Shown here: positions 1-51,548 of the stretch, in pieces | How positions within the stretch are numbered: position 1 is the first letter of the stretch | Layout of the letters: each line of letters begins with the position of its first letter | Sequence record: NC_079180.1 | DNA from: Escherichia phage SKA49 | Reading direction: 5' to 3' (one strand) | DNA length: 51,548 nucleotides | Program-made: the position numbers and the translations under genes | The notes under the pieces: generated by a model | Database searches by the model: none | The model's input: only the letters and a program-made list of their open reading frames with translations | Told to the model about the DNA's origin: nothing

Positions 1-170
1 GCTCACTTCGCCCGCTTTATATTATAATTTTATTTTGGGCCAGCGGGGAGGGGAAGTTGTGACATTATTATTTTAAAATTTTTTATCTCCGAGGAGGGGA
101 AGCCCAACGTCCTATCGGACTTAAAATACGGTCCCTACCCCAACTTTTTCCTACAGCCTATCGGCTTTCA
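1..170. repeat. left-end non-coding repeat region
   Basis: G-rich motif GGGGAGGGGAAG at about 45-56 and GAGGAGGGGAAG at 91-102; 12-bp palindromes GTCCTATCGGAC (109-120) and AGCCTATCGGCT (155-166); AT-rich runs; no ORF. Confidence 0.35.
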
Positions 171-250
171 AACAACACCAAGTTAGGCGCTTCGCTTATA
201 AGTCAAGGTCAAAGGCAATCAGAGTACGCTGTTGTAATGTGCTAGTCTCA

Positions 251-270
251 CCATTAGTTGGTTGTGATTA
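251..270 (+). promoter_or_regulatory. variant of the phage promoter-like motif (CCATTAGTTGGTTGTGATT) upstream of the RNAP gene
   Basis: Matches the core CATTAGTTGG-TGTGA shared by seven other intergenic copies; lies 60 nt upstream of the RNAP start. Confidence 0.4.
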
Positions 271-330
271 TGAATAGGCTACGCAAGTCTAATCCGTTTC
301 AGTTAAATCATAATCAATTGGAGACTTATC

Positions 331-2445
331 ATGACTAACGAAGAATACCGTGCACTGGCTGCTGATGGCGCTCGCTTGAAAGAAGAAGGCCAAGGTTGGA
401 AAGACGTGCTCGATACGATGGACCGTTGCAACCAGATGGTAGATGAAATCACCTCCGTTACACAAACCGAAACTAAAACCGAAACTAAATTGGAGACTCG
501 CAAAATGACAACTATCTCAACTCAAACTATCAAATCCGTTGTCCCTGCTATCACTGCTCTGGTATATCGTGCCAAAGAGAAACAGAACTACATGCAGCCT
601 CAGACCTGTGCTATTGCTGCTCTTGCAATCTTTAAGATGATGACCTCATTCACTCGTGATGACGTTGTTCCTGCCATTGCGATGGTTGAGCTGGCTTCTG
701 CTTCTATTGCTGATGCCAACCGCTACAACAACGACTTGAAAGCAATGCACTATGTTGACCCAGCTATCAACCTCATTGGTCTGGCTAAGCACTTCGGCTT
801 CATTACCATGAACGAAGACAAGTCATTCCAACAGACTGACACATGGGTTGAACTGGTTACAACCAAAGACACAGCAGTGCCATTCACTGAGCGTGTTACA
901 TCTGAATCTCGTCGCAAGCCTTTCGTTAAAGGTGGCAAAGTTAAGCCATCCAAAACTTTGAAAGCTGCAATCGAATTCCTGCAAGATACTGAGTACCATG
1001 TGGAGACTGAGATGGTTCGCATCATCCAGTCCATGATTGAACAGCGTACTTATGGTGGCTTGCAGATGCCAGAAGCAATCCAGACTGAACTCCATGTTTG
1101 GAACAATGCTGTAGCAATGATGAATCAGGACACACTGTATTCTGACTACTTTGCTGACAACCGTGGTCGCCTGTATCATGTAGCATGTGCTGGTCCTAAC
1201 CCACAATCCTCTGACTTTGCTCGTTGCTTGTATTCTCACAATGTTGAGAACATCGTTAAGAAGTTTAACGAAGATGGTTCTACTACCATTGCATACAACA
1301 TGTTCATGGCAGAGCTGGAAGATATTTCCGGTGGTGAATGGTGCAGTGCTAAACGTCTGACCTATGTTGCTCAGAATCCAGCTGGTTCACTTGCTCGCAT
1401 GATGAACATGCCTAAAGCTGAACGTCCTTCTAAGCCATTCACTTATGTTCGTCTGGCTCTGGATTGGTTCAAGTTTGAGACTACAGGTGAATGCGATTCT
1501 CGTGTAGGCTTTGGCTTAGATGCTAAATGTTCTGGTACTCAATATCTGGCATTCATTGCTGGTAACATGGAAATGGCTCGTGCAACAGGTCTGGTTGATT
1601 CTGAGACTAAAGCATCTGACCCATACCAGTTGAGTCTTCGTGAACTGTTGAAGCTGCTGGACAAGTCTTCAATGAAACCTTCTGTTGAAATCATGGATGA
1701 ATTCTTGAACCCTAAAGCTGGTCGTAAGTTTATCAAAACTCCGTACATGGCTATTCAATATGGTGGTGGTAAAGCTGCATTAACTGGTTCATCTGACTTC
1801 ATTAGCTACATGACAGAAGCGCTCCAGATTCCTATGGAGAAAGCTGAGGCATTTGCTGAACTGTGTGTAGAAGCAATCCATAACGCATTGGGTGCTAAGA
1901 TTAACATGTTCATCGAGAAAGCTGCTGATGCTGCATACAACCGTTGTGTTGAACTCAACAAAGAGTACATCACATATCGTCACACTGATGGTCAGGTTGT
2001 AATGAAGCCTTGCTTCCCATCTCGTGAAATCTGTGAGGCATTCAGCATTCGTGTTGACTCACAAACTCGTGTTATCTTTGGCCAGATTCAGGAGAATAAG
2101 CCTTGGACCATTCGTGAATCCAATCCAACTAAAGAAGAATTCAAGCGTACTTTCGTTGTTAACTACATTCAAGGTATTGACGCATTGGTTGCTCGTACTG
2201 TTGCAGTTAAGGCTAAAGAAGCTGGTCTTCGTGGCTTCACTTCAATCCATGATTGTTTCCGTTGCTGTCTGGCAGATGCTCCACGTATGATGGAAGTTAT
2301 TCGTGCAGCATATGTTGAAATCTTTGTAACCAACAATCAATTCGAGAATCTGTCTAAGCAACTCGGTGGCATTCAGATGTATCATGAGAACATCGTAACC
2401 GAAGAGCTTCTGATGAGCGAACACGCTTACTACTTCTGTCAATAA
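331..2445 (+). CDS. T7-type single-subunit DNA-dependent RNA polymerase (compact, 704 aa)
   Basis: Motif A-like FGLDAKCSGTQYLA, motif B-like GRKFIKTPYMAIQYGGG, motif C TSIHDCF with catalytic Asp; GGAG RBS before ATG. Confidence 0.85.
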   Translation: MTNEEYRALAADGARLKEEGQGWKDVLDTMDRCNQMVDEITSVTQTETKTETKLETRKMTTISTQTIKSVVPAITALVYRAKEKQNYMQPQTCAIAALAIFKMMTSFTRDDVVPAIAMVELASASIADANRYNNDLKAMHYVDPAINLIGLAKHFGFITMNEDKSFQQTDTWVELVTTKDTAVPFTERVTSESRRKPFVKGGKVKPSKTLKAAIEFLQDTEYHVETEMVRIIQSMIEQRTYGGLQMPEAIQTELHVWNNAVAMMNQDTLYSDYFADNRGRLYHVACAGPNPQSSDFARCLYSHNVENIVKKFNEDGSTTIAYNMFMAELEDISGGEWCSAKRLTYVAQNPAGSLARMMNMPKAERPSKPFTYVRLALDWFKFETTGECDSRVGFGLDAKCSGTQYLAFIAGNMEMARATGLVDSETKASDPYQLSLRELLKLLDKSSMKPSVEIMDEFLNPKAGRKFIKTPYMAIQYGGGKAALTGSSDFISYMTEALQIPMEKAEAFAELCVEAIHNALGAKINMFIEKAADAAYNRCVELNKEYITYRHTDGQVVMKPCFPSREICEAFSIRVDSQTRVIFGQIQENKPWTIRESNPTKEEFKRTFVVNYIQGIDALVARTVAVKAKEAGLRGFTSIHDCFRCCLADAPRMMEVIRAAYVEIFVTNNQFENLSKQLGGIQMYHENIVTEELLMSEHAYYFCQ

Positions 2446-2453
2446 GAGAAACA

Positions 2454-2497
2454 GGGCTGTCATCGAAAGGTGATGGCCCTTTCTTTATTCTTTATTA
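2454..2497 (+). terminator. intrinsic terminator after RNAP gene
   Basis: Hairpin GGGCTGTCAT-CGAAAG-GTGATGGCCC (with G-T pairs) followed by TTTCTTTATTCTTTATT. Confidence 0.55.
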
Positions 2498-2525
2498 ATT
2501 AAATCCTTTAATTCCCAATATTCAA

Positions 2526-3300
2526 GCAATATTGCTGCATGTAATATTGTTTCAATATTCGACATTAGTTGGATGTGAAGTAACAGAATACGGAGAAGTA
2601 TTCCGCATGTCATGTTGAATCATTCTAGAAACATTCAGCATGTCAGCTTTGAGTTACAGCGTTGTAATGATGTGGCAATCATTGAACTCCCTGGGAAGGC
2701 CACCTACAGTTCCAGCAACCATGACTTAGAGTAGGAATATCTATCCGAAACTTGGACTTCATTGTAGTTTGGTGTGCTTCATCGTGAGAAAGGTAGCGAC
2801 AACTTTCATAAGCAAATAGCATGACTCATTCCAGACAAACTTGGAACAGCTCATGTAGTACCAGCATGTTCAATTGCGACAATATTGCTCCATCTCCTAT
2901 TATAAAGGCCCACCCACAAGCCGGGAGATAACTTTGGTAATATTGGAACTTTTGGACATGCTTCTTTCTTTCAATCAGAATTCGAAAGAAGAGAAGAGTC
3001 GGAGCAAAGCCTCTCGTTTACACGCAGAAGCCGCCCCGATTTTGAGCAACAAATATTGTGACAATATTGTCGCAGTATGGCATGTAAATATTGCTACAAA
3101 TTGGCATGTTAGAATGTGGCAGAATTGTTAGAGGACTAATCACCTCGAAGATACAATCGTCTGCCAATCTGGCATGTTAATTTTGTAACAGTATTTGTGC
3201 CAATTTCGCATGTAGTATTTAACCCAATATTCTTGCAACCCGCATGAATACTGGCTTTCAGCCAAGCGAAGGCTTTATCATCGCATGTAATATTGTGACA
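2526..3300. repeat. cluster of AT-rich palindromic motifs (CAATATTG, GACAATATTGTC) and GCATGTAATATTG-like repeats
   Basis: CAATATTG or near copies at about 2527, 2545, 2877, 3049, 3058, 3087, 3294, 3302; (G/C)GCATGT(A/T)A-TATT at about 2536, 3080, 3102, 3169, 3205, 3282. Confidence 0.5.
2562..2580 (+). promoter_or_regulatory. phage promoter-like motif ACATTAGTTGGATGTGAAG
   Basis: Conserved about 19-bp motif in an intergenic position, one of eight copies. Confidence 0.55.
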
Positions 3301-3508
3301 ATATTGGGATAAAACCCTTTATTTAAATCATTTAGTTTATTAATTAAATGGTCGGTTTTCTGTACATAGGTATTCAGCTGTTTGTGCCAAATACAAACAA
3401 GTTGGCTGCTTCTACAGAACTCCAGTGCTACAAATGTTCGTGCCAATCTGCTGCAATTTATCTCATTTGGCGGGGTAATATTGTATTAGGTTGGTACGTC
3501 ATTATTTC

Positions 3509-3529
3509 GATTAGTTGCATGTGAATAAG
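3509..3529 (+). promoter_or_regulatory. degenerate promoter-like motif GATTAGTTGCATGTGAATAAG
   Basis: Partial match to the ACATTAGTTGGATGTGAAG consensus, upstream of the early gene cluster. Confidence 0.3.
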
Positions 3530-3717
3530 ACCAAATCTCTGTAAATTCTGTGACAGATTTTAGAGAGATTATGTCTCCAAGCTAATCATTGTAGTTTTTA
3601 GACACTTTGTGTGTCACATATATAGCCTGTGAAAAACGTGTGGTATATTGCTGGATTGCGACGCGCCCACCAGACTAGGAAGTCACTGACGGCGGCACAC
3701 ACAGGAATACTATATAA

Positions 3718-3780
3718 CTCCCTACAACTTTAAGGTGGATTGAGGTAAGACAAGACCTCCACAATCGTTCTGTAGGGAGT
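3718..3780 (+). promoter_or_regulatory. 9-bp inverted repeat (CTCCCTACA ... TGTAGGGAG) with nested GTGGA/TCCAC stem, upstream of first early gene
   Basis: Perfect reverse-complement arms 3718-3726 and 3772-3780 separated by 45 nt; candidate RNA structure or processing site. Confidence 0.35.
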
Positions 3781-3804
3781 TTTCCTTTAACTTTGGAGAA
3801 TAAA

Positions 3805-4053
3805 ATGGATACTGTGATTAAAGCTGCTTGTTTCAAAGACCTGCAAGATGGTCAAATCTTCACTGTTCGTTCTGTGAAGTGGATTAAAGTAAATGAGTCA
3901 GATAAGTACAATGCTGTAAAGTTCTTTGATTCAAGCAAAGCATGTACTTTTAGCGACAATATTGTTGTCAATATTGAAGTCGAATTAATTCCTGATGACG
4001 GAGATGTTGAAGCAACTCTTCGTAACACTGCTGGATATAACGAGGGATTCTAA
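3805..4053 (+). CDS. hypothetical early protein (82 aa)
   Basis: ATG with GGAG RBS 6 nt upstream; track ORF begins at TTG 3793. Confidence 0.6.
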   Translation: MDTVIKAACFKDLQDGQIFTVRSVKWIKVNESDKYNAVKFFDSSKACTFSDNIVVNIEVELIPDDGDVEATLRNTAGYNEGF

Positions 4054-4296
4054 ATGAATTATGCTTTATATCAATACATCAATCGCGATGGTGTTGTTTC
4101 TCATGCTTTGGTTAATACTGAAACCAGAGCAATAATGTTGGCAGACTTAATATCTTATACATCACTTTACGAAAACAAGCTGGTGTGGAATAATGCCGCA
4201 TATCCTGAATATGTTTGGCAAGCAATCCAGAATGACAAACATCACAAAGTTGTGGCAACTGCCACACATCCAGATTTCTTGAAAGTAAGAGGTTAA
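4054..4296 (+). CDS. hypothetical early protein (80 aa)
   Basis: ATG abuts upstream stop (TAAATG); track ORF. Confidence 0.55.
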   Translation: MNYALYQYINRDGVVSHALVNTETRAIMLADLISYTSLYENKLVWNNAAYPEYVWQAIQNDKHHKVVATATHPDFLKVRG

Positions 4297-4298
4297 CA

Positions 4299-4487
4299 AT
4301 GGACTTCATCGTCTACTTTAAGTTAAATGGTGTGGAGCAAAGATTGTACTTCAATTCTTTACTTCGTTTGCAACAGTGGGCGGAGAAGTTTATTGGTTAC
4401 GACTTTGAATACATCAACGCATGTACACCTGACGAACATGAGGAAATCGTGTTCAGTTCATTAAACCAGATTCTGGAGGCCAAATGA
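4299..4487 (+). CDS. hypothetical early protein (62 aa)
   Basis: AAGAGG RBS before ATG; track ORF. Confidence 0.55.
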   Translation: MDFIVYFKLNGVEQRLYFNSLLRLQQWAEKFIGYDFEYINACTPDEHEEIVFSSLNQILEAK

Positions 4488-4648
4488 AGTTGTCCCACTT
4501 CAAATCTTTTAAATCCTGTGTTTACGCTGCTGCCTATGGCAGTTCAAACAAACGTTTGAAGAAAATGGCTAAAGAAGCAAATCCACGTATGCCTGCTCGT
4601 GAAGTGGCAAGACGTGTTAAATCAATTTACGAATATCTGGAGTATTAA
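4484..4648 (+). CDS. hypothetical small basic protein (54 aa)
   Basis: ATG overlaps upstream stop (ATGA); GGAGG RBS; below the 60-aa track cutoff, found by reading. Confidence 0.4.
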   Translation: MKLSHFKSFKSCVYAAAYGSSNKRLKKMAKEANPRMPAREVARRVKSIYEYLEY

Positions 4649-4831
4649 GTGAGCTATGAGAATCTGCTACTAAGAACTGGTGGTGGGATGCTCATACTGA
4701 CCACACCTGAGTTCCATTTCACGAAGGTTTACTCCGAAGAATTTAAATCCTGGTTCCCAGCAAGTCTAAAAACACGATGGCTTAAAGATTGTGTACTTGT
4801 TGGGAAGAATGTGAAGTTAAGGAACAAATAA
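4649..4831 (+). CDS. hypothetical protein (60 aa, GTG start)
   Basis: GGAG 7 nt before GTG; track ORF. Confidence 0.35.
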   Translation: MSYENLLLRTGGGMLILTTPEFHFTKVYSEEFKSWFPASLKTRWLKDCVLVGKNVKLRNK

Positions 4832-5004
4832 TGAACGACCAGCAATTCAACACATTCATGCAGCAGATTAATCATCAAGAATTGATGGACACTCTCAAAG
4901 GCAAGAAGCCAGTCGAACGTAAATATAGTAAAATTGATAATTATATGCCAACAATCATTGCATGTGTTGGTGTTGCTATTGTTCTCTACTTCCTGGTGAA
5001 ATAA
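4831..5004 (+). CDS. small protein with hydrophobic C-terminal segment (57 aa)
   Basis: AAGGA RBS before ATG 4831; C-terminus TIIACVGVAIVLYFLV looks transmembrane. Confidence 0.45.
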   Translation: MNDQQFNTFMQQINHQELMDTLKGKKPVERKYSKIDNYMPTIIACVGVAIVLYFLVK

Positions 5005-5087
5005 TGGACATTGTTAAGAAATTAGTATTCTGCATTCTAATGTTCCCTCTGGTGCTGCTCGTTGTGGGCAGCTTCTTAATCTTCTAA
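5004..5087 (+). CDS. possible 27-aa hydrophobic peptide MDIVKKLVFCILMFPLVLLVVGSFLIF
   Basis: ATG overlaps upstream stop (TAATG); entirely hydrophobic; below track cutoff. Confidence 0.25.
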   Translation: MDIVKKLVFCILMFPLVLLVVGSFLIF

Positions 5088-5099
5088 TAAGGCAATTCC

Positions 5100-5396
5100 A
5101 TGTCAATTCAGAAATTCCTTGATGTATCAAACGTTGCTAAGAATTCGATTCCAAGCAATCCTGACATTCTGACCTCAATGCGTGTTGATGTTGCACTTCT
5201 GGCTTTGGCTGGTGAGCACATCAATGTACTTGAAAGGCAAGTATATGACTTACAAACTGAATCAGACCGTCGAGCAGAGGTGTTGATTGAGTTCCAGAAA
5301 TCTTACGATGCTCTGCAAGAAGACCGAAACAATTTGCAACAACGGCTTGCAGATGCACTTGAAGAAATCGAAAGGTTAACACCTCCAACCGAATAA
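5100..5396 (+). CDS. hypothetical protein, coiled-coil-like (98 aa)
   Basis: Track ORF; heptad-like C-terminus. Confidence 0.55.
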   Translation: MSIQKFLDVSNVAKNSIPSNPDILTSMRVDVALLALAGEHINVLERQVYDLQTESDRRAEVLIEFQKSYDALQEDRNNLQQRLADALEEIERLTPPTE

Positions 5397-5411
5397 CTAT
5401 TGGGAGTTATT

Positions 5412-5675
5412 ATGGCTACTAAAACCGGAATGATGATTGTCCCAAGCCGTAATAACTCTTTAAGCGGCTTCACTCCGTATAAAATCTATGAAGTAATTTC
5501 TGGCACTGGTGAAGCAAACCTGTCAGAAGTTGCTTTGAAGTTGGGCCGTATGGTCCACTCCGAAATCTCCTGTAACGTAGTTGATGATGAAGGTAAAATC
5601 CGTTTTGTAACAATGGATTTCTTTCGTGAATTTAACCTCAAATCTGAGATAGGTGTTTTATATCATGAAATTTAA
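5412..5675 (+). CDS. hypothetical protein (87 aa)
   Basis: ATG with GGGAG RBS; in frame with track ORF 5400..5675. Confidence 0.55.
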   Translation: MATKTGMMIVPSRNNSLSGFTPYKIYEVISGTGEANLSEVALKLGRMVHSEISCNVVDDEGKIRFVTMDFFREFNLKSEIGVLYHEI

Positions 5676-5892
5676 ATGTGTTGCTTCAACCAAAGATTAT
5701 GTTCCAGTTGGCTTCATCGTTGAAGGTGAAGCTATCTCGCCTTTGGAATTTAAAGTGGCCAAATCGGCTGAGAATGTTTCTCCAGCATTTCGTAAAGGTG
5801 CTGTAGTGCCTATGAATGGTGCATTCTGGACATGGCAGCGTGACCATGAAGCAGAATTTGCAGACATTTGTGAACAAGGCAGTCTTCAATAA
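5665..5892 (+). CDS. hypothetical protein (75 aa)
   Basis: ATG 5665 with AGGTG RBS; in frame with track ORF 5653..5892. Confidence 0.5.
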   Translation: MKFKCVASTKDYVPVGFIVEGEAISPLEFKVAKSAENVSPAFRKGAVVPMNGAFWTWQRDHEAEFADICEQGSLQ

Positions 5893-5898
5893 TTTCCT

Positions 5899-5925
5899 CA
5901 ACCACTTTTGTAATGAGAGTGGTTG
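5899..5925 (+). terminator. hairpin CAACCACT-(11 nt)-AGTGGTTG after gene 5665..5892
   Basis: Perfect 8-bp stem immediately after stop codon; no strong T-run. Confidence 0.3.
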
Positions 5926-5955
5926 CTGAATATTATTAATCAACTTGGAGCATTT

Positions 5956-6246
5956 ATGAAACAGCGCACCCGTTTACAACGCGACCCAGCCACAGGTCGC
6001 TTGTTGCCAGCATATTTGAAAGTTGGTGACTTAGTTTACACTCGTGACTTTGCTTTTGACATTTGCCCAAGCAAAGCATATGAAGTTCTTGCCACCAGCT
6101 TGTCTGGTCCTAAAGTAATATTTGGTGCACTTGAGCCAATCCAGTTAACCGGAACTCAGTTTGTCATTAAAGATGAATCTGGTTGCAATCGTATCTTCAA
6201 TCTTGAAGGTGGTTTATCCAAATGGGAGAAGGTGAAGCGTGGGTAA
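5956..6246 (+). CDS. hypothetical protein (96 aa)
   Basis: ATG with GGAG RBS; in frame with track ORF 5923..6246. Confidence 0.5.
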   Translation: MKQRTRLQRDPATGRLLPAYLKVGDLVYTRDFAFDICPSKAYEVLATSLSGPKVIFGALEPIQLTGTQFVIKDESGCNRIFNLEGGLSKWEKVKRG

Positions 6247-6472
6247 GAATTATATCGAAATGTTTAAGAGAATCTCTTTCAATGGGCGAGAGTTCTTGCT
6301 AAACGATGCAAGGCAAGATGTAGAGCTGTCTGATAAGTACAGCTCCTTATATCAGAGAACCCTTGTAAAATGGACGTTCTCTTATATATCTTACAATCTT
6401 CCAGAAGAGACGCTTGTAATTAGCGGTTCTGGAAATTCAGTTTTGGCAGCTTTGGAGAAACTAAAGCAATGA
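6239..6472 (+). CDS. hypothetical protein (77 aa, GTG start)
   Basis: AGGTGA 5 nt before GTG; track ORF. Confidence 0.45.
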   Translation: MGKNYIEMFKRISFNGREFLLNDARQDVELSDKYSSLYQRTLVKWTFSYISYNLPEETLVISGSGNSVLAALEKLKQ

Positions 6473-6756
6473 ACAAGAATTCAGTCTTACGTTATGTGGG
6501 TAAAACAAACTACAACTTTACCAACGGTAAGAAATACAAAATCGTCGCAGGTCGTGGTGACGGAGTTCCTCGCAACAACGGTACACTCGGTGCGTATATT
6601 CAATCTCCTTTGGGTTTTGTCGTTAATGACGATAACCGCAATTTATGTTATCGTACATTCTCCGATAATTGGGAACTTGTGAAAGATTCTGGTGAAGTTA
6701 GTTGGTATAAACCTGAATCAAACATGGACCCGATTCCAATTTCAAAGGTGATGTAA
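6469..6756 (+). CDS. hypothetical protein (95 aa)
   Basis: ATG overlaps upstream stop; track ORF. Confidence 0.5.
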   Translation: MNKNSVLRYVGKTNYNFTNGKKYKIVAGRGDGVPRNNGTLGAYIQSPLGFVVNDDNRNLCYRTFSDNWELVKDSGEVSWYKPESNMDPIPISKVM

Positions 6757-6954
6757 ATGCGTGTAAATACCCATTTGTACAGCCACAAAAGTCACAGTCC
6801 TATGAACATCTCTGCTGGATGGACTCTGTGGTTTGTTGGTGAAGAATGCAGTCCTTGGCATAACGTCAAATGCAAATTCTTTCCTGTGAAGCCGACCAAA
6901 AAGCAAGTGCGCAAATTACGTAGGAAGTTCATAAACGATTGTAAATCCTGTTAA
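6757..6954 (+). CDS. hypothetical Cys-containing small protein (65 aa)
   Basis: AAGGTGA RBS; track ORF. Confidence 0.45.
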   Translation: MRVNTHLYSHKSHSPMNISAGWTLWFVGEECSPWHNVKCKFFPVKPTKKQVRKLRRKFINDCKSC

Positions 6955-6994
6955 ATTAACAAGGAGCATTCATTGAGTGTTCCTGATTAATCTA

Positions 6995-7013
6995 ACATTA
7001 GTTGGATATGAGG
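6995..7013 (+). promoter_or_regulatory. phage promoter-like motif ACATTAGTTGGATATGAGG
   Basis: Conserved motif about 70 nt upstream of gene 7084. Confidence 0.55.
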
Positions 7014-7083: not shown

Positions 7084-7464
7084 ATGGCACAATATTCAGA
7101 TGTAAACACTGGCATTATCGGTCCTAACGGCTTCAAGAAAGACCCAAAACATCCTGACATTCGTGGACGTATTAACGTTGACGGAATCTGGTATTGGGTA
7201 TCCGGTTGGAACAAGCAAGCAAATGGTAATGAGTTTACCTCACTTGCATTAACCATCATGACCCAAGAACAGGTCGATGAAATGATGCGTAAGCGTGAAG
7301 AGAAAGCTAAAGCCAAAGCTCAACCTCAAGCTGCCGCTCAACAGCAACAGCCTCGACAGCAACCTTCCGCACAACAGCAAGCTCCTGCTCAGCAACAAGC
7401 TCCGCAGTCGTCTGCATACAACCCAAATGAACCACAGGACTTTGACAGCGACATTCCGTTCTAG
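7084..7464 (+). CDS. small protein with bacterial-SSB-type C-terminal tail (ends NEPQDFDSDIPF); candidate mini-SSB or SSB-tail mimic
   Basis: Trp/Gly-rich N-terminal domain, Q/A/P-rich linker, C-terminal acidic tip ending DIPF as in bacterial SSB. Confidence 0.5.
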   Translation: MAQYSDVNTGIIGPNGFKKDPKHPDIRGRINVDGIWYWVSGWNKQANGNEFTSLALTIMTQEQVDEMMRKREEKAKAKAQPQAAAQQQQPRQQPSAQQQAPAQQQAPQSSAYNPNEPQDFDSDIPF

Positions 7465-9467: not shown

Positions 9468-9487
9468 CTTCATCAATGGAGCATCCG

Positions 9488-10265: not shown

Positions 10266-10334
10266 TTCCAGGCGGGTTTCTTCGAAGTGCCAAGCGGGTT
10301 TTGTGCTCGCATTGGCCTTCGGCTTTAGTCTGAA

Positions 10335-10353
10335 ACATTAGTGGGATTTGATT
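10335..10353 (+). promoter_or_regulatory. phage promoter-like motif ACATTAGTGGGATTTGATT
   Basis: Preceded by CTGAA as in other copies; intergenic. Confidence 0.45.
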
Positions 10354-40374: not shown

Positions 40375-40380
40375 GGAGTT

Positions 40381-43967: not shown

Positions 43968-45100
43968 CAGAAGACGGGTTTGTAAGAAAGCCCGTTACAG
44001 AAGTTGTTAAAAGTCTTAATAACAAATTCATTGCAGCGTTTGGTGCTAACTTCGATGTAAGTCCTGAATCCCCAGATGGGCAGGTTATCGGAATAGTTGC
44101 TGACGAAATCGCAACATGCTGGGAGCAAGCTCAGCAAGTATTTAACGCATATCGACCTGGCGCTGTTGAAGGAGTCGGACTTGATAACGTTTGCGAACTT
44201 ACCAATACTAAGCGATATGTTAATAAACCATCCCAAGCAACTGTGTATTGCGACGGTACTGTTGGCACTTTGGTTCCTGCTGGCTCGCTTGTTAGTGATG
44301 GTAGTCGTCAGTTTAGGCTAGATACTGATGTAACCTTACCTGGTGATGTTACCGTTATCGCAACAGAGCCTGGAGAGTATTACATTGCTGCTAATACAAT
44401 CATTAACATAGTGACACCTATTGCTGGCTGGACTTCTGTAACCAACCCAACAATTGGTACAACTGGTATTGACTATGAATCAGACCCAGAACTCCGAGCA
44501 CGCCGTGACAAAACAACGGCAGTCAATTCAGCCACGACAGCAGAAGCCATCTATGCTTCACTCGCTGACCTTGATATTGATTACATTCGTGTTCGTGATA
44601 ATGATACCGATGCTGCTATTGGCAGTCAGCCTCCAGGCACTGTCTTTGTTGTAGTTGATGGCGGCACAAGTAACGATATTGCTCGACGCATTTATAATGC
44701 CAAAACTGGTGGTGTTCCTACTCATGGTGACATTGAAATCACAATCAATGACTCTCGTGGCTACCCGCACCCAATCAAGTTCAGTCGGCCAGTTCGTACC
44801 CCAATCTTTGTCAAAGGTACTTTCCGTCGTCGTTCTTCTGCAAACATTAGTTCCAATGATGCTGCTGAAAGATTGCGAGAAGCTGCCATTGCATATTTAA
44901 ACAGCTTACAGCCTGGTGATGATGTAGTTTGGTCAAACATGTTTGGGCCGATTATGTCTGCCGTGCAATATATTGAAGTTGATTCGTTGTTCATTGGCCT
45001 GTCTGCAAATCCGACAAGCACTGCAACAATTGAACTCGACATTGATAAGCGCGCCCAAGGTCTGGAAGCTAATATCAAATTCACTGACGTAACGGTGTAA
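43943..45100 (+). CDS. baseplate J-like protein
   Basis: 385 aa, position in baseplate module. Confidence 0.6.
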   Translation: MATIQYGVTEDGFVRKPVTEVVKSLNNKFIAAFGANFDVSPESPDGQVIGIVADEIATCWEQAQQVFNAYRPGAVEGVGLDNVCELTNTKRYVNKPSQATVYCDGTVGTLVPAGSLVSDGSRQFRLDTDVTLPGDVTVIATEPGEYYIAANTIINIVTPIAGWTSVTNPTIGTTGIDYESDPELRARRDKTTAVNSATTAEAIYASLADLDIDYIRVRDNDTDAAIGSQPPGTVFVVVDGGTSNDIARRIYNAKTGGVPTHGDIEITINDSRGYPHPIKFSRPVRTPIFVKGTFRRRSSANISSNDAAERLREAAIAYLNSLQPGDDVVWSNMFGPIMSAVQYIEVDSLFIGLSANPTSTATIELDIDKRAQGLEANIKFTDVTV

Positions 45101-45101
45101 C

Positions 45102-45743
45102 ATGGCTACTAAACATGGCTTGGAGATGTTGTTATCTCAGTATTACAACTCGCCAAACTTAAAGAAGTATATTTCAATCTTTGTTGAAGAGTTTGCGGAA
45201 GTTAAACAAGCCATGTCCGATTCTGTAAAGTATCGCTACCTTGCAGATTCCTTTGGCGTCATGGTTGACGACATTGCCTATATTGTTGGCACTGAACGTG
45301 TAATCTACGGCGCCGAAGCTCTCGGATACTTTGGCTTCTATCGTGACCCGTCTGCATTCCCAGCTGGGGATGACAACGACCCAGATATTGGCGGCATACT
45401 TAAGTCCGATTATGATAAAGATTCTGGCGACTTTATTCGTACAGACTTGCAACTTAAGAATGCTATCAAGGCCAGGATTACCAAAATCACTGGCAACTGT
45501 AATATCGAGCAAATCATTACATACCTTGAGCTTCTAATTGGGCGTGACTTAGACCTTGAAATCAAAGAAGGGTTTAAGCGTATGGACTACATTGTCCACG
45601 AAAGTTTGTCTGTTGCTGATAAGGTTATGCTGGCCCACACGATTCCACAATTTAAACCTGTGGGAATCACTGTAACACTTCGAGATAATAATGGCGTTAT
45701 CGACCTGGTGTTCAGTTCTAAAGACTACCCGCCGGAGACATGA
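45102..45743 (+). CDS. baseplate protein (gpI / Mu gp48-like)
   Basis: 213 aa following J-like gene. Confidence 0.45.
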   Translation: MATKHGLEMLLSQYYNSPNLKKYISIFVEEFAEVKQAMSDSVKYRYLADSFGVMVDDIAYIVGTERVIYGAEALGYFGFYRDPSAFPAGDDNDPDIGGILKSDYDKDSGDFIRTDLQLKNAIKARITKITGNCNIEQIITYLELLIGRDLDLEIKEGFKRMDYIVHESLSVADKVMLAHTIPQFKPVGITVTLRDNNGVIDLVFSSKDYPPET

Positions 45744-46888
45744 TGACTAAACGCTTAACATTTAAATTCCCTTGGGCGCAAGATGGTGAAATTGCTGACC
45801 CAGACTTAGACACAACCAACCCAAGTTATGTTGCAAACCGATATGCAAGCATGGGCTGGGAAGCTGAGAAGCCACCAAACGAATGGCAGAACTTCTTAAC
45901 ACAGATTAGTGATTTAAAGATTATGTCTTTACTCTTCTCTGGTGTGGCAGAGTTTGATAGTAGTGTTACATATCAAACTGGTGCAGTGTCTGTTCTCAAT
46001 GGTGTTGTGCAAATTAAGGTTGCCTCTGGCTGGGAACAAATCCTAGACATGAAGACTGTAGATTATCTAAATGATGTTGCAGCATTGAAACTCATTTATG
46101 ACAATCACATGGCTACCGAGAATCCGCACAACGACACAGTTGATACGCTGGTGGATAAAGGAAGAACAAAGGCAAATATTGATATTGCCTTTGGGAGTGC
46201 TACCGACCCTCAAACAATTGTTTATCACAAATTGCAACAAGGTCGTGTTCACCAGGAAACTCCAGAGCAGGTTGGCACTCTTCCAACATCTGGTGGTACA
46301 TTCACTGGTCCTGTGTCGTTCCTTGCTGGGATGAAATTTGCGACAGACAACACTGTTAGTATGAACGGTGCAACAGGTCGTTTGGAACTTCGTAGTGGTA
46401 GTCGTATTCTGTCTATTGATGCTCTAGGAAATGTTGTCTGGAGCATAGTTGGTGGTGAAGAATATCCCGTGATGACGGAGCTGAATTACTCAGAGTTTCA
46501 GATTCGTTGGGGAAACAGATTTGCCCTACCGACACCATACTTGAGTATGAACCTATCAGCCAGTATTAACGATGCTTGCTCTGTTCGTGGTTGGAAGATT
46601 TCAACAACGGGAACACCAGTATTTCACCCTATGGGTGGGTTGAAGATGGATGACAATACTGTAACCTTCTCCGGATTTGATGTTTCTTGTCCAACCACAA
46701 TAGTGGCCTTTACAAGAAATGCTTCCGGCACTCTTGGGAGAGGTAACTCTGATGCTCCGTCTGGTGGTTATACAAGCCTTAACACACTCCTTACGAATCT
46801 TGGAATAGTTGATGCTGCTTACGTCGTGAGTATCACTTGCTATCCAACATTAACCGCTTATCAGAAATCAATGTTAGTGAGGCCATAA
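45740..46888 (+). CDS. tail fibre protein
   Basis: 382 aa after baseplate genes. Confidence 0.5.
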   Translation: MMTKRLTFKFPWAQDGEIADPDLDTTNPSYVANRYASMGWEAEKPPNEWQNFLTQISDLKIMSLLFSGVAEFDSSVTYQTGAVSVLNGVVQIKVASGWEQILDMKTVDYLNDVAALKLIYDNHMATENPHNDTVDTLVDKGRTKANIDIAFGSATDPQTIVYHKLQQGRVHQETPEQVGTLPTSGGTFTGPVSFLAGMKFATDNTVSMNGATGRLELRSGSRILSIDALGNVVWSIVGGEEYPVMTELNYSEFQIRWGNRFALPTPYLSMNLSASINDACSVRGWKISTTGTPVFHPMGGLKMDDNTVTFSGFDVSCPTTIVAFTRNASGTLGRGNSDAPSGGYTSLNTLLTNLGIVDAAYVVSITCYPTLTAYQKSMLVRP

Positions 46889-48279
46889 TGGCGCTTCGTC
46901 CTAAATTAAATCGCGTATGGACTTCAAATAACACTGTTGCCAGACGTGACCCAGGGGATGCAAAGTATCTCCAAGGTTGGGTTGCTGAGATACCAACCTA
47001 TCAAGTTTTAAACTATTTGCAGTATAAAGTTGATACCACAATGCTTGCTCAGGCGGAACGTGGAATCTTCGAGTGGGGTGGTGATGTTTCTTATGGTGTT
47101 GGCAGTTTGGCTTGGGACGAAACAAACAAAACTATTTATGTTTGTACTGTAACAAACCCAAGCAAGACTTTGGCCCCAAGTGCCAACCCAGCACAATGGA
47201 GTCCGAGCGCCATTCAGGTATCTCGTGCCAACTATGACTCTGTTGTATCTGCAATCAATACCCATATTGCAAACCGAGCAAACCCTCACCAAGTAACTGC
47301 TGCACAGGTTGGTACATACAACCGTGCTGAAATGGATGCACTTGTATCCAACTATCGAGCAATGGTGTTGGCGCATGCCTCTGACTACAACAACCCACAT
47401 AAGCTAACTGCTGTTCAAGTTGGTGCTGTTCCTGTAACTGGTGGTGAGTATACTGGTCAGGTAACTATGCCGACCGCCTACTTCAATGCCTCCAAGACTG
47501 CACAACTGTTGCAAGACAATGGACTATGGTTGAAGAATGGCAACTACTTACTAGGTATTAACGGTACGACAGGGAATCCCGAAGCAGGAACTGCTGCAAG
47601 CAAGTCCAGGATAGTCACAGAATCTAACTTCCCAGACTTGAAAGCTGCACAAGAGCCTAAATATGCAGTAGAAGCGCCATACTATGAAATGGCACTAATA
47701 GGTTCTGTAAACATACTTCGTGGCGCAGGAACATTCAGTACCGGAGACTCCGAGCCTATGTACTTGGCATCATCTGGGAATGCTCTAACATTCGACAGCA
47801 CACCAACCAGCCCAGCACAGAGATTCGAAGCCTCTTCACAACTTCCTGCTAGCTCAAGTATTACAGTCTGTGCCGATGTTATGAGGGTGTCACAGTCTGA
47901 TACGAGTGATGGCAACTGGCAGCTGAGTTTCGGCACCGCAGATTTCAATATCACTATTGGGTACAATGGGTATACGACCATCAGGTTCAGAGGCCCAACA
48001 GGAGGTATTGTTGCAATGCAGGGGGTAATCTCCCAAGATTTGAAAACTGTTGGTGTGTGGAACAGGTTGTCGGCAACACTTTCTGGAAGCACTATTAAGG
48101 TGTTTGTAAACGGTGTACTGCTATTCTCCAGAGAGCAAGAAGTGGGTGTTGCAGTTGGGAGAGCGCCATTTATAACTAAATGGAGTATGGTTGGGGCTAC
48201 CACAAACTCTAGAATATCTATTAGGTCTTTTAGGTTGTGGAACTCGGCACTAACAGACAAACAAATTTCAACTTTATAG
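46888..48279 (+). CDS. tail fibre protein
   Basis: ATG with GAGG RBS; in frame with track ORF 46837..48279. Confidence 0.5.
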   Translation: MALRPKLNRVWTSNNTVARRDPGDAKYLQGWVAEIPTYQVLNYLQYKVDTTMLAQAERGIFEWGGDVSYGVGSLAWDETNKTIYVCTVTNPSKTLAPSANPAQWSPSAIQVSRANYDSVVSAINTHIANRANPHQVTAAQVGTYNRAEMDALVSNYRAMVLAHASDYNNPHKLTAVQVGAVPVTGGEYTGQVTMPTAYFNASKTAQLLQDNGLWLKNGNYLLGINGTTGNPEAGTAASKSRIVTESNFPDLKAAQEPKYAVEAPYYEMALIGSVNILRGAGTFSTGDSEPMYLASSGNALTFDSTPTSPAQRFEASSQLPASSSITVCADVMRVSQSDTSDGNWQLSFGTADFNITIGYNGYTTIRFRGPTGGIVAMQGVISQDLKTVGVWNRLSATLSGSTIKVFVNGVLLFSREQEVGVAVGRAPFITKWSMVGATTNSRISIRSFRLWNSALTDKQISTL

Positions 48280-48287: not shown

Positions 48288-49361
48288 ATGGCTAAAGGTT
48301 ATTCTTTAGATGCGCTAGTTCAAGAGCACTACATTAAAGATGCAGTTGGTTTAGATGTCAGCAATATAAATGATAAGTGGGGCGCGGATAATGTAGGGAC
48401 ATTCTTCCAAAACCTGCATGTAAATGCAACAGTTGAGAACGGGTATCCTTACGGAGCCTCGGCAGGCAACTTGGAAGTGCTACTTACTAATGCCGGTACT
48501 CTTGATAACTGCGTACAGAGATACACAAACTTTAATGATTTAAGAATGTGGATTCGCTCTCAAGACCGTGGAGCTGGAAACAGGACTTGGACACCTTGGA
48601 TGGAGCTTATAAATGCGAACAACATTTATAAAGCAATCTACCCAATTGGAATTGTTCTCCAGTTTGACAATGCCACCAACCCAAATAACTCCTTCACAGG
48701 AACATCTTGGGTACAAATCGTAGATGGTCGCTCTGTTCGTGCAGCGTCTTCTGCGGAAGTTGGCACTGAACTTGGTCAGATTGGTGCGATTGTTGGTGAA
48801 GATGAAGTTACCATTGCTGTGGCTAACCTCCCATCCCACACTCACAACATGCGTAACCATACACACTCCATCGCGTCCCACACACACACTATGGCCCACA
48901 CGCACTCAATCAACCACGACCACGGTGCAGTGACCTCAAGTTCAGGTGGTGCTCACACGCACAGCTTAAGCGGCACTGCTGCTTCTGCTGGTGCACACCA
49001 ACACACAGAAGGTTCGCCGTTTACTGGTGATGTCAATTTTGGTGCTACCTCAAGCACCAGTAAGAATAATATCAAAGACTGGTTGTACAGCCCATCTACA
49101 AGATACCCGCTAACCTCATCTTCCGGTGCCCATACACACAGTGTTAGTGGAACTGCCAACTCTGCTGGCGCTCACACGCACTCTGTAGACCTGCCTAACT
49201 TCACTGGCACTAGCGGAGGCTCTAGCGCAGGAAGCACTGGTGGAACAGCTTTGACAACTGGTGCTCCTAGCTCTAACGAATCGGATGCGACTGGTGGTGG
49301 CTCTAAGCTGACCGTCCGTAACGCCTCACACTATTATGCCCTCTGGAAACGAGTGGCTTAA
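48288..49361 (+). CDS. tail fibre protein with collar-like domain and HxH repeat tract
   Basis: HTHNMRNHTHSIASHTHTMAHTHSINHDH followed by GGAHTHS and GAHTHS repeats; ATG with AGGA RBS; in frame with track ORF 48237..49361. Confidence 0.55.
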   Translation: MAKGYSLDALVQEHYIKDAVGLDVSNINDKWGADNVGTFFQNLHVNATVENGYPYGASAGNLEVLLTNAGTLDNCVQRYTNFNDLRMWIRSQDRGAGNRTWTPWMELINANNIYKAIYPIGIVLQFDNATNPNNSFTGTSWVQIVDGRSVRAASSAEVGTELGQIGAIVGEDEVTIAVANLPSHTHNMRNHTHSIASHTHTMAHTHSINHDHGAVTSSSGGAHTHSLSGTAASAGAHQHTEGSPFTGDVNFGATSSTSKNNIKDWLYSPSTRYPLTSSSGAHTHSVSGTANSAGAHTHSVDLPNFTGTSGGSSAGSTGGTALTTGAPSSNESDATGGGSKLTVRNASHYYALWKRVA

Positions 49362-49369: not shown

Positions 49370-49711
49370 ATGGAACGATTATCCATTCAGATGTTTATCG
49401 ACCTCATGCACCAATATGGTGTTTGGCATGGATTGCTGGCTGGTCTGACGGCTTTAATCCGTGGGGCATATGAAAGTGAGGGATTAAGCAAAGCGTTGCT
49501 GGATGCAGCGCTATGCAGCTTGATTGGCCTGTTTGCCTTTCATGTTGCTGGCACATTTGAAACTTTTACGACTAACGTCACAATGCAGTTAGTTCTGGCT
49601 ATCGTGATTGGTGTCATTGGTGCTAACCTCATTATCACAACTGTCAGGGAAAGTTTCTCTGGCGCAATCAAACAACTTAACCCTTTAACGTGGTTCAAGA
49701 AGGCACGATGA
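49370..49711 (+). CDS. holin (lambda S-like)
   Basis: AAGGA RBS; 113 aa with hydrophobic segments GLLAGLTALI, LCSLIGLFAFHVAG, LVLAIVIGVIGANLIITTV. Confidence 0.65.
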   Translation: MERLSIQMFIDLMHQYGVWHGLLAGLTALIRGAYESEGLSKALLDAALCSLIGLFAFHVAGTFETFTTNVTMQLVLAIVIGVIGANLIITTVRESFSGAIKQLNPLTWFKKAR

Positions 49712-49728
49712 AATGATAAGGAACTCGA

Positions 49729-50283
49729 ATGCTATCATTCAAAGTCCTTGCACTTCTGGCAGCTTTAGTTCACATCAACGCCCCAGCTTCGGTTGGGGCA
49801 GTGAATTCTGCTATTACAGATTTTGCAAGTCATTCTTATTTAAATGGAAGTCTGAAACTATCTTCTTCACAACGCAAAGAGCTAGAATGCTACACTAAAG
49901 TTATCTGGTATGAAGCTCGCGGAGAAGACAAACATGGAAAGATTCTGGTAGCTAATGTCGTCCGTAATAGAACTGAGTTCGGGAAGCCATTCGCTAACAC
50001 CGTTTGTGATGTTGTCTATCAACGCAATCAATTTGCATGGACACGAGAAGCAAAGAAGAAGAATGCTCAATGGAAGCATGTAGCAAAGATTAATTATGCC
50101 ACAGAACAACAACAAGTTCTGGACACCATTAGTGTTGCAATCTCTTTTGTACTATTTAATCAACCCTCTGTCACCAAAGCAACCCACTTTTGTACAGCAT
50201 CTGAGAAGTGCAACTTCAAGAATGTTAAAGGTCTGGGACGTTATGGTGGCCATAAATTCTATGAGTATCTAGGAAATCTGTAA
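49729..50283 (+). CDS. SleB/CwlJ-like cell wall hydrolase with N-terminal signal sequence (endolysin candidate)
   Basis: [25 protein letters not shown]...[15 protein letters not shown]; N-terminus [24 protein letters not shown]; AAGGA RBS. Confidence 0.7.
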
Positions 50284-51383
50284 TGGCTTACACTACCTTT
50301 TCACAAACCAAGAATAACCAACTACTAGAGCCAATGTTCTTTGGTCAGAACGTTAACGTTGCTCGATATGACCAACAGAAGTACAGCATCTTCGAGAAGT
50401 TAATCGAGAAGCAGTTGTCTTTCTTTTGGCGACCTGAGGAGGTTGATGTTAGCCAGGACCGAATTGACTATGCTGGTCTTCCTGAGTGTGAGAAACACAT
50501 TTTCACCAGCAATTTACGATACCAAATCTTGCTTGATTCCATTCAGGGACGTGGGCCAACTACAGTTTTGCTACCAATTGTGAGCATTCCTGAGCTTGAA
50601 ACTTGGATTGAAACTTGGTCATTCTCAGAGACAATTCACTCTCGTTCTTACACGCATATTATTCGCAATATTGTCACCGACCCAAGCGTCATCTTTGATG
50701 AAATTGTGGAGAATGAGCATATTAAAATGCGTGCAATTGGCATCTCCCAATATTATGACGAGCTTCAACACCTGACTTCCATGTGGCATCTGCATGAAGA
50801 TAAAGTTTCTCTTCGTGAGCTTAAGAAGAAGCTGTATTTATGCCTAATGTCCATCAATGCACTGGAAGCAATTCGCTTTTATGTCAGTTTTGCTTGCTCA
50901 TTTGCCTTCGCTGAACGCAAGTTAATGGAAGGAAATGCCAAGATTATTCGCTTAATTGCTCGTGATGAAGCGCTCCATTTGACCGGAACTCAACACATGC
51001 TGAACCTTCTTGCAAGCGGTGCTGATGACCCAGAAATGGCCGAAATTGCTAAAGAATGCCGCCAAGAATGCCAAGAAATGTTCGAAAATGTGGCCCAACA
51101 AGAGAAAGATTGGGCTGATTATTTGTTCAAAGATGGCTCAATGATTGGCTTAAACAGGCAAATTCTGTGCGGATATGTGGAATATATTACAAATATTCGT
51201 ATGCAAGCAGTTGGATTGGATGCTCCATTCAAAGGTGCTACTAACCCGATTCCTTGGATTAACGCATGGTTGAATTCGGATGCTGTACAAGTTGCTCCAC
51301 AAGAAACGGAGATTAGTTCGTACCTTGTTGGGCAGATTGACTCCGAAGTTGACACCAATGCTCTAGGCGGATTTGAACTATGA
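50283..51383 (+). CDS. nrdB: class Ia ribonucleotide reductase beta subunit
   Basis: Near-colinear with enterobacterial NrdB as I recall it: [54 protein letters not shown]-terminal [13 protein letters not shown]; one short internal deletion. Confidence 0.85.
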
Positions 51384-51470
51384 TTGGGTACGGTGAAGGC
51401 TGACGTTTGTCAGTTAATATGTGAGAAGAGATTCGATGCGTTAGCGTCGTTTCTCTTTGAACTAGAATAA

Positions 51471-51548
51471 AATAAGTAAGTTAAATATTACTTATTCCCA
51501 ATATTGCTACAATATTAAGAGTAATATTAGGAATGCGTAAAGTTCAAA
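51471..51548. repeat. right-end non-coding region with 9-bp AT-rich hairpin and three AATATT(G/A) motifs
   Basis: AATAAGTAA-GTTAAATA-TTACTTATT hairpin; CCAATATTGCTACAATATTAAGAGTAATATTAGG echoes the 2.5-3.3 kb cluster. Confidence 0.35.

Follow-up and report, generated by a model that had tools for sequence, protein, structure and literature searches.

Escherichia phage SKA49 is a near-complete member of Carltongylesvirus that encodes a T7-family RNA polymerase and a predicted contractile tail

Introduction

What kind of phage joins a single-subunit RNA polymerase (RNAP) of the T7 family to a contractile tail? The genome of Escherichia phage SKA49 (NC_079180.1) raises this question. The window analyzed here is the whole of that sequence, 51,548 bp with 44.13% G+C, in which about 73 credible protein genes, all on the plus strand, give a coding fraction of 0.88. 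A preliminary description of the same DNA had rightly remarked on the single coding strand within about 52 kb, had called the combination of RNAP and myovirus tail uncommon and had pointed to the phiEcoM-GJ1 lineage of the Chaseviridae. The combination is real; it has been known since 2008 and is formalized as the family Chaseviridae. The ICTV profile of that family gives exactly these traits: a phage-encoded large single-subunit RNAP, myovirus morphology, DNA polymerase and helicase/primase, a lytic lifestyle, and linear, non-permuted double-stranded DNA genomes of 52-56 kbp having 39.3-52.5% G+C and direct terminal repeats of about 3 kb (PMC12842549).

We are very confident that SKA49 is a near-complete genome, with one terminal-repeat copy, of a virulent myovirus that belongs to Carltongylesvirus (Chaseviridae, Cleopatravirinae) and is distinct at the species level from the members with which it was compared.

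Results

SKA49 falls within Carltongylesvirus

Both halves of the window were compared by megablast with 50,697 phage records (a collection dated August 2025), of which 76 and 79 records matched. The top matches were Escherichia phages DE15, EcoM1, FXie-2024a, ST32, TH53, Bp7, JL1, Mangalitsa, SA91KD and phiEcoM-GJ1. The best Carltongylesvirus coliphages gave 87-94% identity at 86-96% query coverage, and remoter matches were phages of Yersinia, Erwinia, Proteus, Pantoea and Pectobacterium. The database records of the matched phages assign Chaseviridae, Cleopatravirinae and Carltongylesvirus. When the 82 annotated Mangalitsa proteins were compared with the window by tblastn, those that matched lay in the same order and were mostly 85-100% identical, and by this collinearity the contig is not chimeric. 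Neither an unrelated best-matching family nor a chimera was found, since the best nucleotide matches were all Carltongylesvirus and collinearity ran end to end; the proposed lineage therefore held.

Intergenomic similarities to the window were calculated in the manner of VIRIDIC (blastn with word size 7; two-way identities summed and divided by summed genome lengths):

Mangalitsa, 84.3%
DE15, 83.9%
TH53, 83.4%
phiEcoM-GJ1, 81.1%

Mutual similarity among these four phages is 79-87%. The genus level was taken as about 70% nucleotide similarity and the species level as 95%, the ICTV rule for species in Chaseviridae being more than 95% identity across the genome (PMC12842549). As 81.1-84.3% lies above 70% and below 95%, and collinearity accompanies it, SKA49 is placed in the genus and in none of the compared species. 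By the 95% rule SKA49 is probably a new species: the maximum was 84.3%, and no record of the August 2025 collection joined 95% identity with full coverage.

A further isolate of a named species, such as Carltongylesvirus ST32, GJ1 or mangalitsa, would explain why many single proteins are 96-100% identical to their Mangalitsa or ST32 counterparts and why the left half is 94% identical to ST32, Bp7 and PO103-1 across the aligned parts. However, the best product of identity and coverage was only about 0.84, and 81-84% is the range that separates recognized species of the genus, so we consider such an isolate unlikely. A new species would be nothing unusual. Phage Tiny (53,007 bp) was described on the same grounds as another new Carltongylesvirus species in a 2026 paper, which shows such finds to be routine; 17 Carltongylesvirus genomes were in NCBI in that year (PMC13340011). 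SKA49 is an ordinary further member of an already described genus, the phiEcoM-GJ1 group.

One matching record carries an unexpected label. PP952070.1, 'Staphylococcus phage Pel53' (host given as Staphylococcus hyicus), is 88% identical over 88% of the left half of the window, and its NrdB is of the enterobacterial type and 91% identical to that of the window. A Staphylococcus host looks doubtful for a Carltongylesvirus.

The window holds one copy of the terminal repeat

1-120 (+), sequence preceding the left genome end in relatives (right-end unique region); window 19-56 and 90-120 match Mangalitsa 52273-52329
121-2990 (+), region homologous to the Mangalitsa terminal repeat of about 3.2 kb, holding the RNAP gene; boundaries by homology only

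The Mangalitsa record gives a PhageTerm-predicted direct terminal repeat at 1-3234 (3,234 bp) that contains the RNAP gene (PMC6753284). Base 121 of the window equals Mangalitsa base 1, the left end of that repeat, and the right end corresponds to about position 2990. A search of the window against itself found no terminal repeats; with no internal repeat, the terminal repeat is present once. The last 165 nt of the window match the sequence that follows the NrdB gene in relatives. By homology the window thus appears to be a one-repeat-copy, slightly incomplete representation of the genome. Adding a second repeat of about 2.9 kb to the 51,548 bp would give about 54.5 kb, within the Chaseviridae size range. 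The family profile (PMC12842549) agrees in genome size, G+C content, RNAP and lytic lifestyle, and also in the terminal repeats of about 3 kb predicted by homology to Mangalitsa. The window encodes the RNAP, DNA polymerase and helicase/primase of the family together with, at the gene level, a contractile tail.

The RNA polymerase belongs to the T7 family

331-2445 (+), single-subunit (T7-family) DNA-dependent RNAP of 704 residues (PF00940, E 1e-19; phrog_414, E 1e-97)

The T7-type single-subunit RNAP noted at the outset is present, with all three of its conserved motifs. In the alignment with T7 RNAP, LDAKCSGTQ (motif A) falls at D537 and IHDCF (motif C) at H811/D812; KTPYMAIQYGG is motif B. 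With the Mangalitsa RNAP the protein shares 96.6% identity, with T7 RNAP only about 20% (pairwise BLASTP, E 2e-6). As a phmmer search of the PDB gave no chain at E 1e-3, homology to T7 RNAP rests on Pfam and the pairwise BLASTP alignment.

Given membership of PF00940, a set of primase-helicase, PolA, exonuclease and ligase genes in T7-like arrangement and the location of every gene on one strand, SKA49 could be viewed as a T7-like (Autographiviridae) phage that gained a contractile tail module and belongs with the T7 supergroup. The remoteness of the polymerase from that of T7 speaks against this, as does the location of its gene, by homology, inside a terminal repeat of about 3 kb rather than downstream of a 160-bp repeat. 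Moreover, the entire virion module is of the myovirus type, and the current ICTV phylogeny, which gives the group its own family, refutes the proposal. We regard a T7-supergroup origin of this sort as highly improbable and retain the assignment to Chaseviridae.

The virion genes resemble those of Pam3 and E217

The genes for packaging and the head are as follows:

25937-27955 (+), terminase large subunit (Terminase_6C; 98% identical to Mangalitsa TerL), with a weak promoter-like motif at about 25897
28170-29486 (+), portal (Phage_portal_3, E 3e-75; Pam3 portal 8hds, E 5e-37)
29455-30519 (+), DUF2213 head scaffold/maturation protein (PF09979, E 8e-32)
30529-31002 (+), capsid cement/decoration protein of the E217 gp24/Pam3 gp6 type (PF22758, E 4e-17)
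31351-32358 (+), major capsid protein, HK97 fold family (PF09950, E 3e-47; Pam3 major capsid protein 8hdt, E 9e-32)
32846-34103 (+), head-tail connector genes: DUF4054/E217_gp27, adaptor and neck terminator

The head module had been called lambda-like. Lambda heads are built from a Phage_portal_2 portal, the gpC protease/scaffold, the gpD decoration protein and the gpE capsid protein. The families found here are others (Phage_portal_3, DUF2213, the PF22758 cement protein and PF09950), and the nearest structures are those of Pam3 and E217. The PDB matches of the head proteins included no lambda chain, and no match to the lambda-specific head families was seen. With no lambda protein among the matches, that label is unsupported beyond the common HK97 fold, and the family matches indicate a Pam3/E217-type HK97-fold head. 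The Mangalitsa annotators had labeled their head module T1-like.

A 363-residue open reading frame (ORF) lies antisense to the major capsid gene (31342-32433, minus strand). It was rejected as a gene, being a codon-aligned shadow frame of the capsid gene. Its stop codons would mirror sense TTA, CTA and TCA, and codon bias is the most likely reason for its existence.

Tail, baseplate and fibers are encoded downstream of the connector genes:

34104-35552 (+), tail sheath (DUF3383, E 1.5e-63; E217_gp31_N; Pam3 and XM1 sheaths)
35564-36019 (+), tail tube (99% identical to the Mangalitsa protein annotated as PP101 tail tube-like; sub-threshold KPP10_Orf10)
36031-36489, with a predicted -1 frameshift extension to 36665 (+), tail assembly chaperone (Phage_TAC_15, E 3.5e-18)
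36649-40374 (+), tape-measure-position virion protein of 1241 residues (phrog_19855; YqaJ and SLT domains)
40448-41542 (+), baseplate hub (E217_GP41, weak, E 0.005)
41542-42444 (+), Dit-like tail tube initiator (PF21821, E 5.5e-21)
42441-42809 (+), baseplate plug, Pam3 gp18-like (97% identical to the Mangalitsa protein annotated as PP101 minor baseplate-like)
42802-43596 (+), central spike/puncturing device (PF18352, a phage protein N-terminal domain, E 9e-18; E217 gp43-type spikes)
43596-43967 (+), gp25-like sheath initiator (phrog_120, E 6e-28; Pam3 gp21, E217 gp34)
43943-45100 (+), Baseplate_J wedge (PF04865, E 4.5e-14; PDB wedge proteins)
45102-45743 (+), second wedge, DUF2612 (PF11041, E 8e-12)
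45740-46888, 46888-48279 and 48288-49361 (+), three tail-fiber genes (phrog_8147, Laminin_G_3, Gp10_C)

The sheath, tube, chaperone, tape-measure and Baseplate_J genes bear out, at the gene level, the earlier expectation of a contractile tail. Two of these matches fall below the Pfam gathering cut-offs: that of the tube to KPP10_Orf10 (E 7.5e-5, 23.1 bits; cut-off 25) and that of the plug to PF22479 (E 4e-4, 21.3 bits; cut-off 24.2). The tube protein is also found in several 53-kb metagenome contigs of the same architecture, whereas searches with the exact RNAP and sheath sequences found neither protein on record. In the chaperone gene a canonical slippery heptamer (T_TTT_TTC, 36387-36393) lies exactly at the opening of the -1 frame, and the predicted frameshift would give a 211-residue product ending at 36665 and overlapping the tape-measure start codon. 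The last of the three fibers (48288-49361) is the most divergent, being 69% identical to that of Mangalitsa.

The description of the baseplate as Mu/P2-like stood in part. A generic Baseplate_J wedge, a gp25-like initiator and a spike are present, but the best matches are to Pam3, E217, XM1 and phi92. Mu gp45 matched the spike only at E 0.06-0.2, and beyond this there was no match to the P2 gpV/Mu gp45 spike, P2 gpD/Mu gp44 hub or P2 gpI/Mu gp48 families. PF18352 is the phi92 Gp138_N family. By these matches, the baseplate is best described as a simple baseplate of the Pam3/E217 type.

Lysis genes and lifestyle

9051-9467 (+), M15 peptidase, T5-type L-alanyl-D-glutamate endopeptidase-like (Peptidase_M15_4, E 4e-8; Mangalitsa annotation)
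14067-14436 (+), overlapping spanin pair, Rz-like (14067-14303) and Rz1-like (14227-14436), 94-96% identical to the annotated Mangalitsa spanins
49370-49711 (+), holin (Phage_holin_3_1, E 7.5e-8)
49729-50283 (+), endolysin, Hydrolase_2/SleB-type (PF07486, E 1.3e-15)

A scan of about 70 ORFs against Pfam or PHROGs turned up no family of integrases, repressors, excisionases, transposases or partition proteins. With holin, endolysin and spanins present, the lytic lifestyle claimed earlier is supported, although its first leg is an argument from absence; Chaseviridae are lytic (PMC12842549).

The Mu/P2-like baseplate genes of the preliminary description, together with the occurrence of Baseplate_J in both P2 gpJ and Mu gp47, might be taken to indicate that the contig is chimeric, or that it is a prophage or a temperate element of the Mu/P2 type in which an RNAP gene happens to be present. 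Besides the missing lysogeny families, this is opposed by end-to-end collinearity with about 36 full-length relatives, the absence of bacterial flanks, uniform G+C, a monotonic cumulative GC skew and virion proteins that are nearest to the virulent-type modules of Pam3, E217 and XM1. We give a chimeric or temperate origin almost no credence and treat SKA49 as a virulent phage.

A T7-like replication module and an orphan, host-like NrdB

7084-7464 (+), SSB (68% identical to the annotated Mangalitsa SSB), with a promoter-like motif upstream at 6994-7011
9476-10033 (+), anti-restriction protein homologue (phrog_14321, E 3e-53)
15787-16437 (+), flavin-dependent thymidylate synthase ThyX (PF02511, E 7e-43)
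16442-18205 (+), T7 gp4-like primase/helicase (Toprim and DnaB_C/AAA_25)
18271-20205 (+), family A DNA polymerase (PF00476, E 8e-11)
21382-21810 (+), endonuclease, divergent allele (phrog_2340, E 2.5e-34; 43% identical to the Mangalitsa protein)
21800-22825 (+), 5'-3' exonuclease (93% identical to the Mangalitsa protein so annotated; sub-threshold 5_3_exonuc_N)
22837-23361 (+), HNH endonuclease/endonuclease VII-like (phrog_1985, E 3e-59)
23351-24106 (+), ATP-dependent DNA ligase (DNA_ligase_OB_2; 99% identical to the Mangalitsa ligase)
24099-24725 (+), dNMP kinase (phrog_139, E 1e-38)
24728-25327 (+), dUTPase of 199 residues, with a C-terminal extension as in phiEcoM-GJ1 (PF00692, E 9e-23)
50283-51383 (+), class Ia ribonucleotide reductase small subunit NrdB, the last gene (PF00268, E 5e-49)

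By these family matches the replication module is T7-like, with additions. The 5_3_exonuc_N match of the exonuclease (E 5e-6, 26.7 bits) is below the Pfam gathering cut-off of 34.3.

Compared with its E. coli counterpart, the phage NrdB shows 80% identity at the protein level and 70% at the DNA level and has a 10-residue deletion. Alignment to the E. coli protein showed that it keeps the tyrosyl-radical residue Y122, the iron ligands, W48, Y356 and the C-terminal NrdA-binding tail. The nearest cellular homologues belong to Enterobacterales: E. coli at 80%, and genera such as Proteus, Xenorhabdus, Providencia and Yersinia at 75-78%. Phage NrdB proteins from outside the group were at most 59% identical among the matches listed, with 73 further records in the 60-80% band. 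These similarities suggest capture of the gene from an Enterobacterales host, and the enterobacterial host that had been proposed from NrdB is supported at the level of the order. A complete class Ia reductase is not encoded, as no ORF of NrdA size or family is found in the window, and the retained NrdA-binding tail suggests that NrdB would form a hybrid reductase with host NrdA.

A strand-specific motif is a candidate RNAP promoter

250-267 (+), promoter-like motif ACCATTAGTTGGTTGTGA, with the start codon of the RNAP gene 64 nt downstream
2446-3804 (+), 1.36-kb non-coding region after the RNAP gene, with a terminator-like hairpin (2453-2480) and two promoter-like motifs (2561, about 3509)
10266-10995 (no strand), conserved non-coding region with motifs at 10334 and 10476 and an AT-rich stretch at 10411-10470, 90-98% identical to Mangalitsa

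The GenBank/RefSeq features of phiEcoM-GJ1 include nine 'putative phage promoters', and orthologues of all nine are present in the window at 2561, about 3509, 6994, 10334, 10476, about 12135, 12465, 20309 and about 40408. Two further sites lie at 250 (unannotated) and, as a weak match before the terminase gene, about 25897. Counts were made by mismatch searches. With at most three mismatches AACATTAGTTGGATGTGA occurs at 7 window sites, all on the plus strand, versus 0.08 expected. Across five genomes the motif was found 40 times on the plus strand and 0 times on the minus strand (7-9 per genome, at orthologous positions). Terminator-like hairpins precede two of the sites, one after the RNAP gene and the other (40375-40400) after the tape-measure gene, upstream of the motif at about 40408 and the hub gene. 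Hence the motif, with core CATTAGTTGGATGTGA, is a good candidate for the RNAP promoter; it is already annotated in phiEcoM-GJ1.

Just one site in the window matches the sigma-70 consensus at 11/12 or better: a perfect TTGACA-N18-TATAAT, read on the minus strand from 10407 to 10378 and antisense to every gene. Two tandem phage-promoter motifs flank it, and the AT-rich stretch lies alongside. The site is kept in all four relatives, identical in phiEcoM-GJ1, TH53 and DE15 and with one spacer change in Mangalitsa. No ORF lies downstream of it, and folding of the putative antisense transcript gave no significant structure. An antisense RNA and a replication origin are possibilities.

The region at 2446-3804, which extends across the predicted right end of the terminal repeat, contains 10 same-strand copies of GCATGT versus 0.5 expected, many beside (C)AATATTG. 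The array is kept in Mangalitsa (14 copies), and the copies are possibly weak promoter-like or protein-binding sites.

A nuclease-fold domain in the tape-measure protein

Within the tape-measure gene two domains were recognized:

about 37975-38640 (+), lambda-exonuclease/YqaJ-fold domain (YqaJ PF09588, E 1.8e-13; PDB 3syy)
about 39829-40104 (+), SLT lytic transglycosylase domain (SLT, E 6e-13)

The homologue of this protein in phage 4HA13 is a virion protein by mass spectrometry (PMC9699118). The nuclease segment can be aligned both with YqaJ/RecE nucleases that stand alone and with its counterparts in four Chaseviridae genera, and retains the PD-(D/E)XK residues D118, E128 and K130 together with other invariant positions. 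An AlphaFold (AF2) model of the domain (predicted local distance difference test, pLDDT, 85.7) matched lambda exonuclease in Foldseek (E 3e-10, template-modeling (TM) score 0.68) and LHK-Exo (TM 0.8). When the domain was used in a word-indexed protein search, the proteins of the family itself were all missed and only distant, free-standing nucleases of the YqaJ type came back, so an exhaustive search of representatives was needed. This gave about 20 clusters (at 50% identity) of proteins of 960-1530 residues having the domain at the same position, some of them just 33-41% identical and also with SLT. Literature searches found no description of a YqaJ-fold domain in a tape-measure protein. From alignment and model, the lambda-exonuclease-fold domain is apparently conserved with its catalytic residues intact.

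One further reading is that this nuclease enters the cell with the DNA and either trims back the roughly 3-kb repeats from their 5' ends or attacks host or competitor DNA. We hold it only tentatively and think it more doubtful than not, and no paper describing it was found. If true, resected repeats would let the genome anneal to circles or concatemers before any phage gene expression, and either way a recombination or anti-host nuclease would be built into the tape measure.

Early genes, a tRNA-like gene and other non-coding stretches

3805-6954 (+), about 13 small early genes of no functional family (tblastn to Mangalitsa; PHROG unknown-function families only)
13796-13887 (+), tRNA-like gene with an oversized D-loop of about 29 nt (Rfam tRNA, 45.2 bits; ARAGORN)

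Given a 4-bp anticodon stem the tRNA-like gene reads Arg(UCG), and phiEcoM-GJ1 and ST32 annotate tRNA-Arg at that place. ARAGORN called Leu(CAG), which we did not adopt, as the sequence fits Arg(UCG) as in the relatives. An ORF (13684-14058) reads straight through the gene. To either side, non-coding stretches of about 0.8-1.1 kb (12899-13683 and 14437-15499) contain blocks 94-99% identical to Mangalitsa, which makes them more conserved than many genes. Searches of the non-coding regions with Rfam at relaxed thresholds found only the tRNA. A tmRNA-like match at 12991-13239 (17.7 bits versus a cut-off of 50) was rejected as chance, and folding of the conserved block at 13060-13360 gave no significant structure.

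Discussion

Several points temper the picture of SKA49 as a near-complete, virulent Carltongylesvirus and species apart. About 190 nt of AT-rich, repeat-bearing DNA found in phiEcoM-GJ1 and Mangalitsa is missing between the end of the window and its start, so the genome is not strictly complete. Lifestyle, host, termini and contractile tail are all predicted from genes and relatives, and a record newer than the August 2025 collection may reach 95% or above. In transcription, the motif is only a candidate because ICTV lists the promoters of the family RNAP as still to be identified (PMC12842549). A simple scan upstream of the RNAP gene gave no convincing plus-strand sigma-70 promoter, and the sigma-70 site annotated in phiEcoM-GJ1 falls in a stretch that is rearranged in the window.

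The gene content is consistent with the following infection cycle. Tail fibers would attach to the cell surface of the host, a member of Enterobacterales and most likely E. coli, and the sheath would contract while the tape-measure protein, through its SLT domain, breaches peptidoglycan. Host RNA polymerase would express the left-end genes, phage RNAP included, and the phage enzyme could then transcribe the one-strand gene array from the conserved motif with core CATTAGTTGGATGTGA at about 11 sites. A T7-like replisome (primase-helicase, PolA, SSB, 5'-3' exonuclease, ligase and endonuclease VII) would copy the DNA, with nucleotides supplied by ThyX, dNMP kinase, dUTPase and the host-like NrdB, which presumably pairs with host NrdA. 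The terminase would fill the HK97-fold head with DNA that carries terminal repeats of about 3 kb, and holin, endolysin and spanins would lyse the cell.

As a matter of classification SKA49 adds little. Its value lies in the promoter candidate, the orphan NrdB and the tape-measure nuclease domain, which are modestly interesting leads on the whole family, not on this genome specifically: the motif as a conserved, strictly strand-specific candidate for the promoter of the family RNAP, and NrdB as implying a hybrid phage-host ribonucleotide reductase.

Like T7 and other Autographiviridae, SKA49 has a single-subunit RNAP with conserved catalytic motifs, a gp4-like primase-helicase, family A polymerase, 5'-3' exonuclease and ligase, and a unidirectional genome with terminator-promoter pairs. 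Unlike them, it encodes a contractile tail and baseplate, its 704-residue RNAP is only about 20% identical to that of T7, the RNAP gene by homology lies within the terminal repeat of about 3 kb, and its promoter candidate bears no sequence relationship to the promoters of T7. With Mu and P2 it has in common the generic plan of a simple baseplate (Baseplate_J wedge, initiator of the gp25/gpW kind, central spike), and with lambda an HK97-fold head to which a cement or decoration protein is added; a -1 frameshift in the tail chaperone gene, predicted in SKA49, is a feature of this Mu, P2 and lambda comparison set. No transposase or integrase was found in SKA49. The closest parallels by sequence are the simple-baseplate myoviruses Pam3 (a cyanophage), E217 (Pseudomonas), XM1 (Vibrio) and phi92, which, plus recent unnamed entries, gave the best PDB sequence matches of the virion module. 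These phages have capsid, portal, cement, sheath, sheath initiator, wedge, spike and hub proteins from the same Pfam families, although identities are low (E-values of 1e-37 to 1e-6), and to our knowledge a phage RNAP and a T7-like replication module are absent from all four.

Among its own relatives SKA49 differs in detail. It is without the three HNH homing-endonuclease genes of phiEcoM-GJ1 (gp34, gp36 and gp47, at 16986-17429, 19254-19739 and 27023-27514 of that genome), which lie at the ThyX/primase, primase/polymerase and pre-terminase junctions; their absence explains much of the 1.4-kb difference in size between the two. It also is without the Mangalitsa Imm homologue and several small early ORFs. 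Compared with Mangalitsa it has divergent alleles of the endonuclease (21382-21810), an ORF at 8222-8572 (44% identical) and the distal tail fiber, and its specific insertions include 4488-4829, 6236-6453 and 20208-20439. For plating, 20-30 degrees C is the best range for relatives. The gene order from RNAP to NrdB, 44.1% G+C, the promoter-like motif at the same places, the tRNA locus, the orphan NrdB and the tape-measure protein with YqaJ and SLT domains are all common to SKA49 and its Carltongylesvirus relatives.

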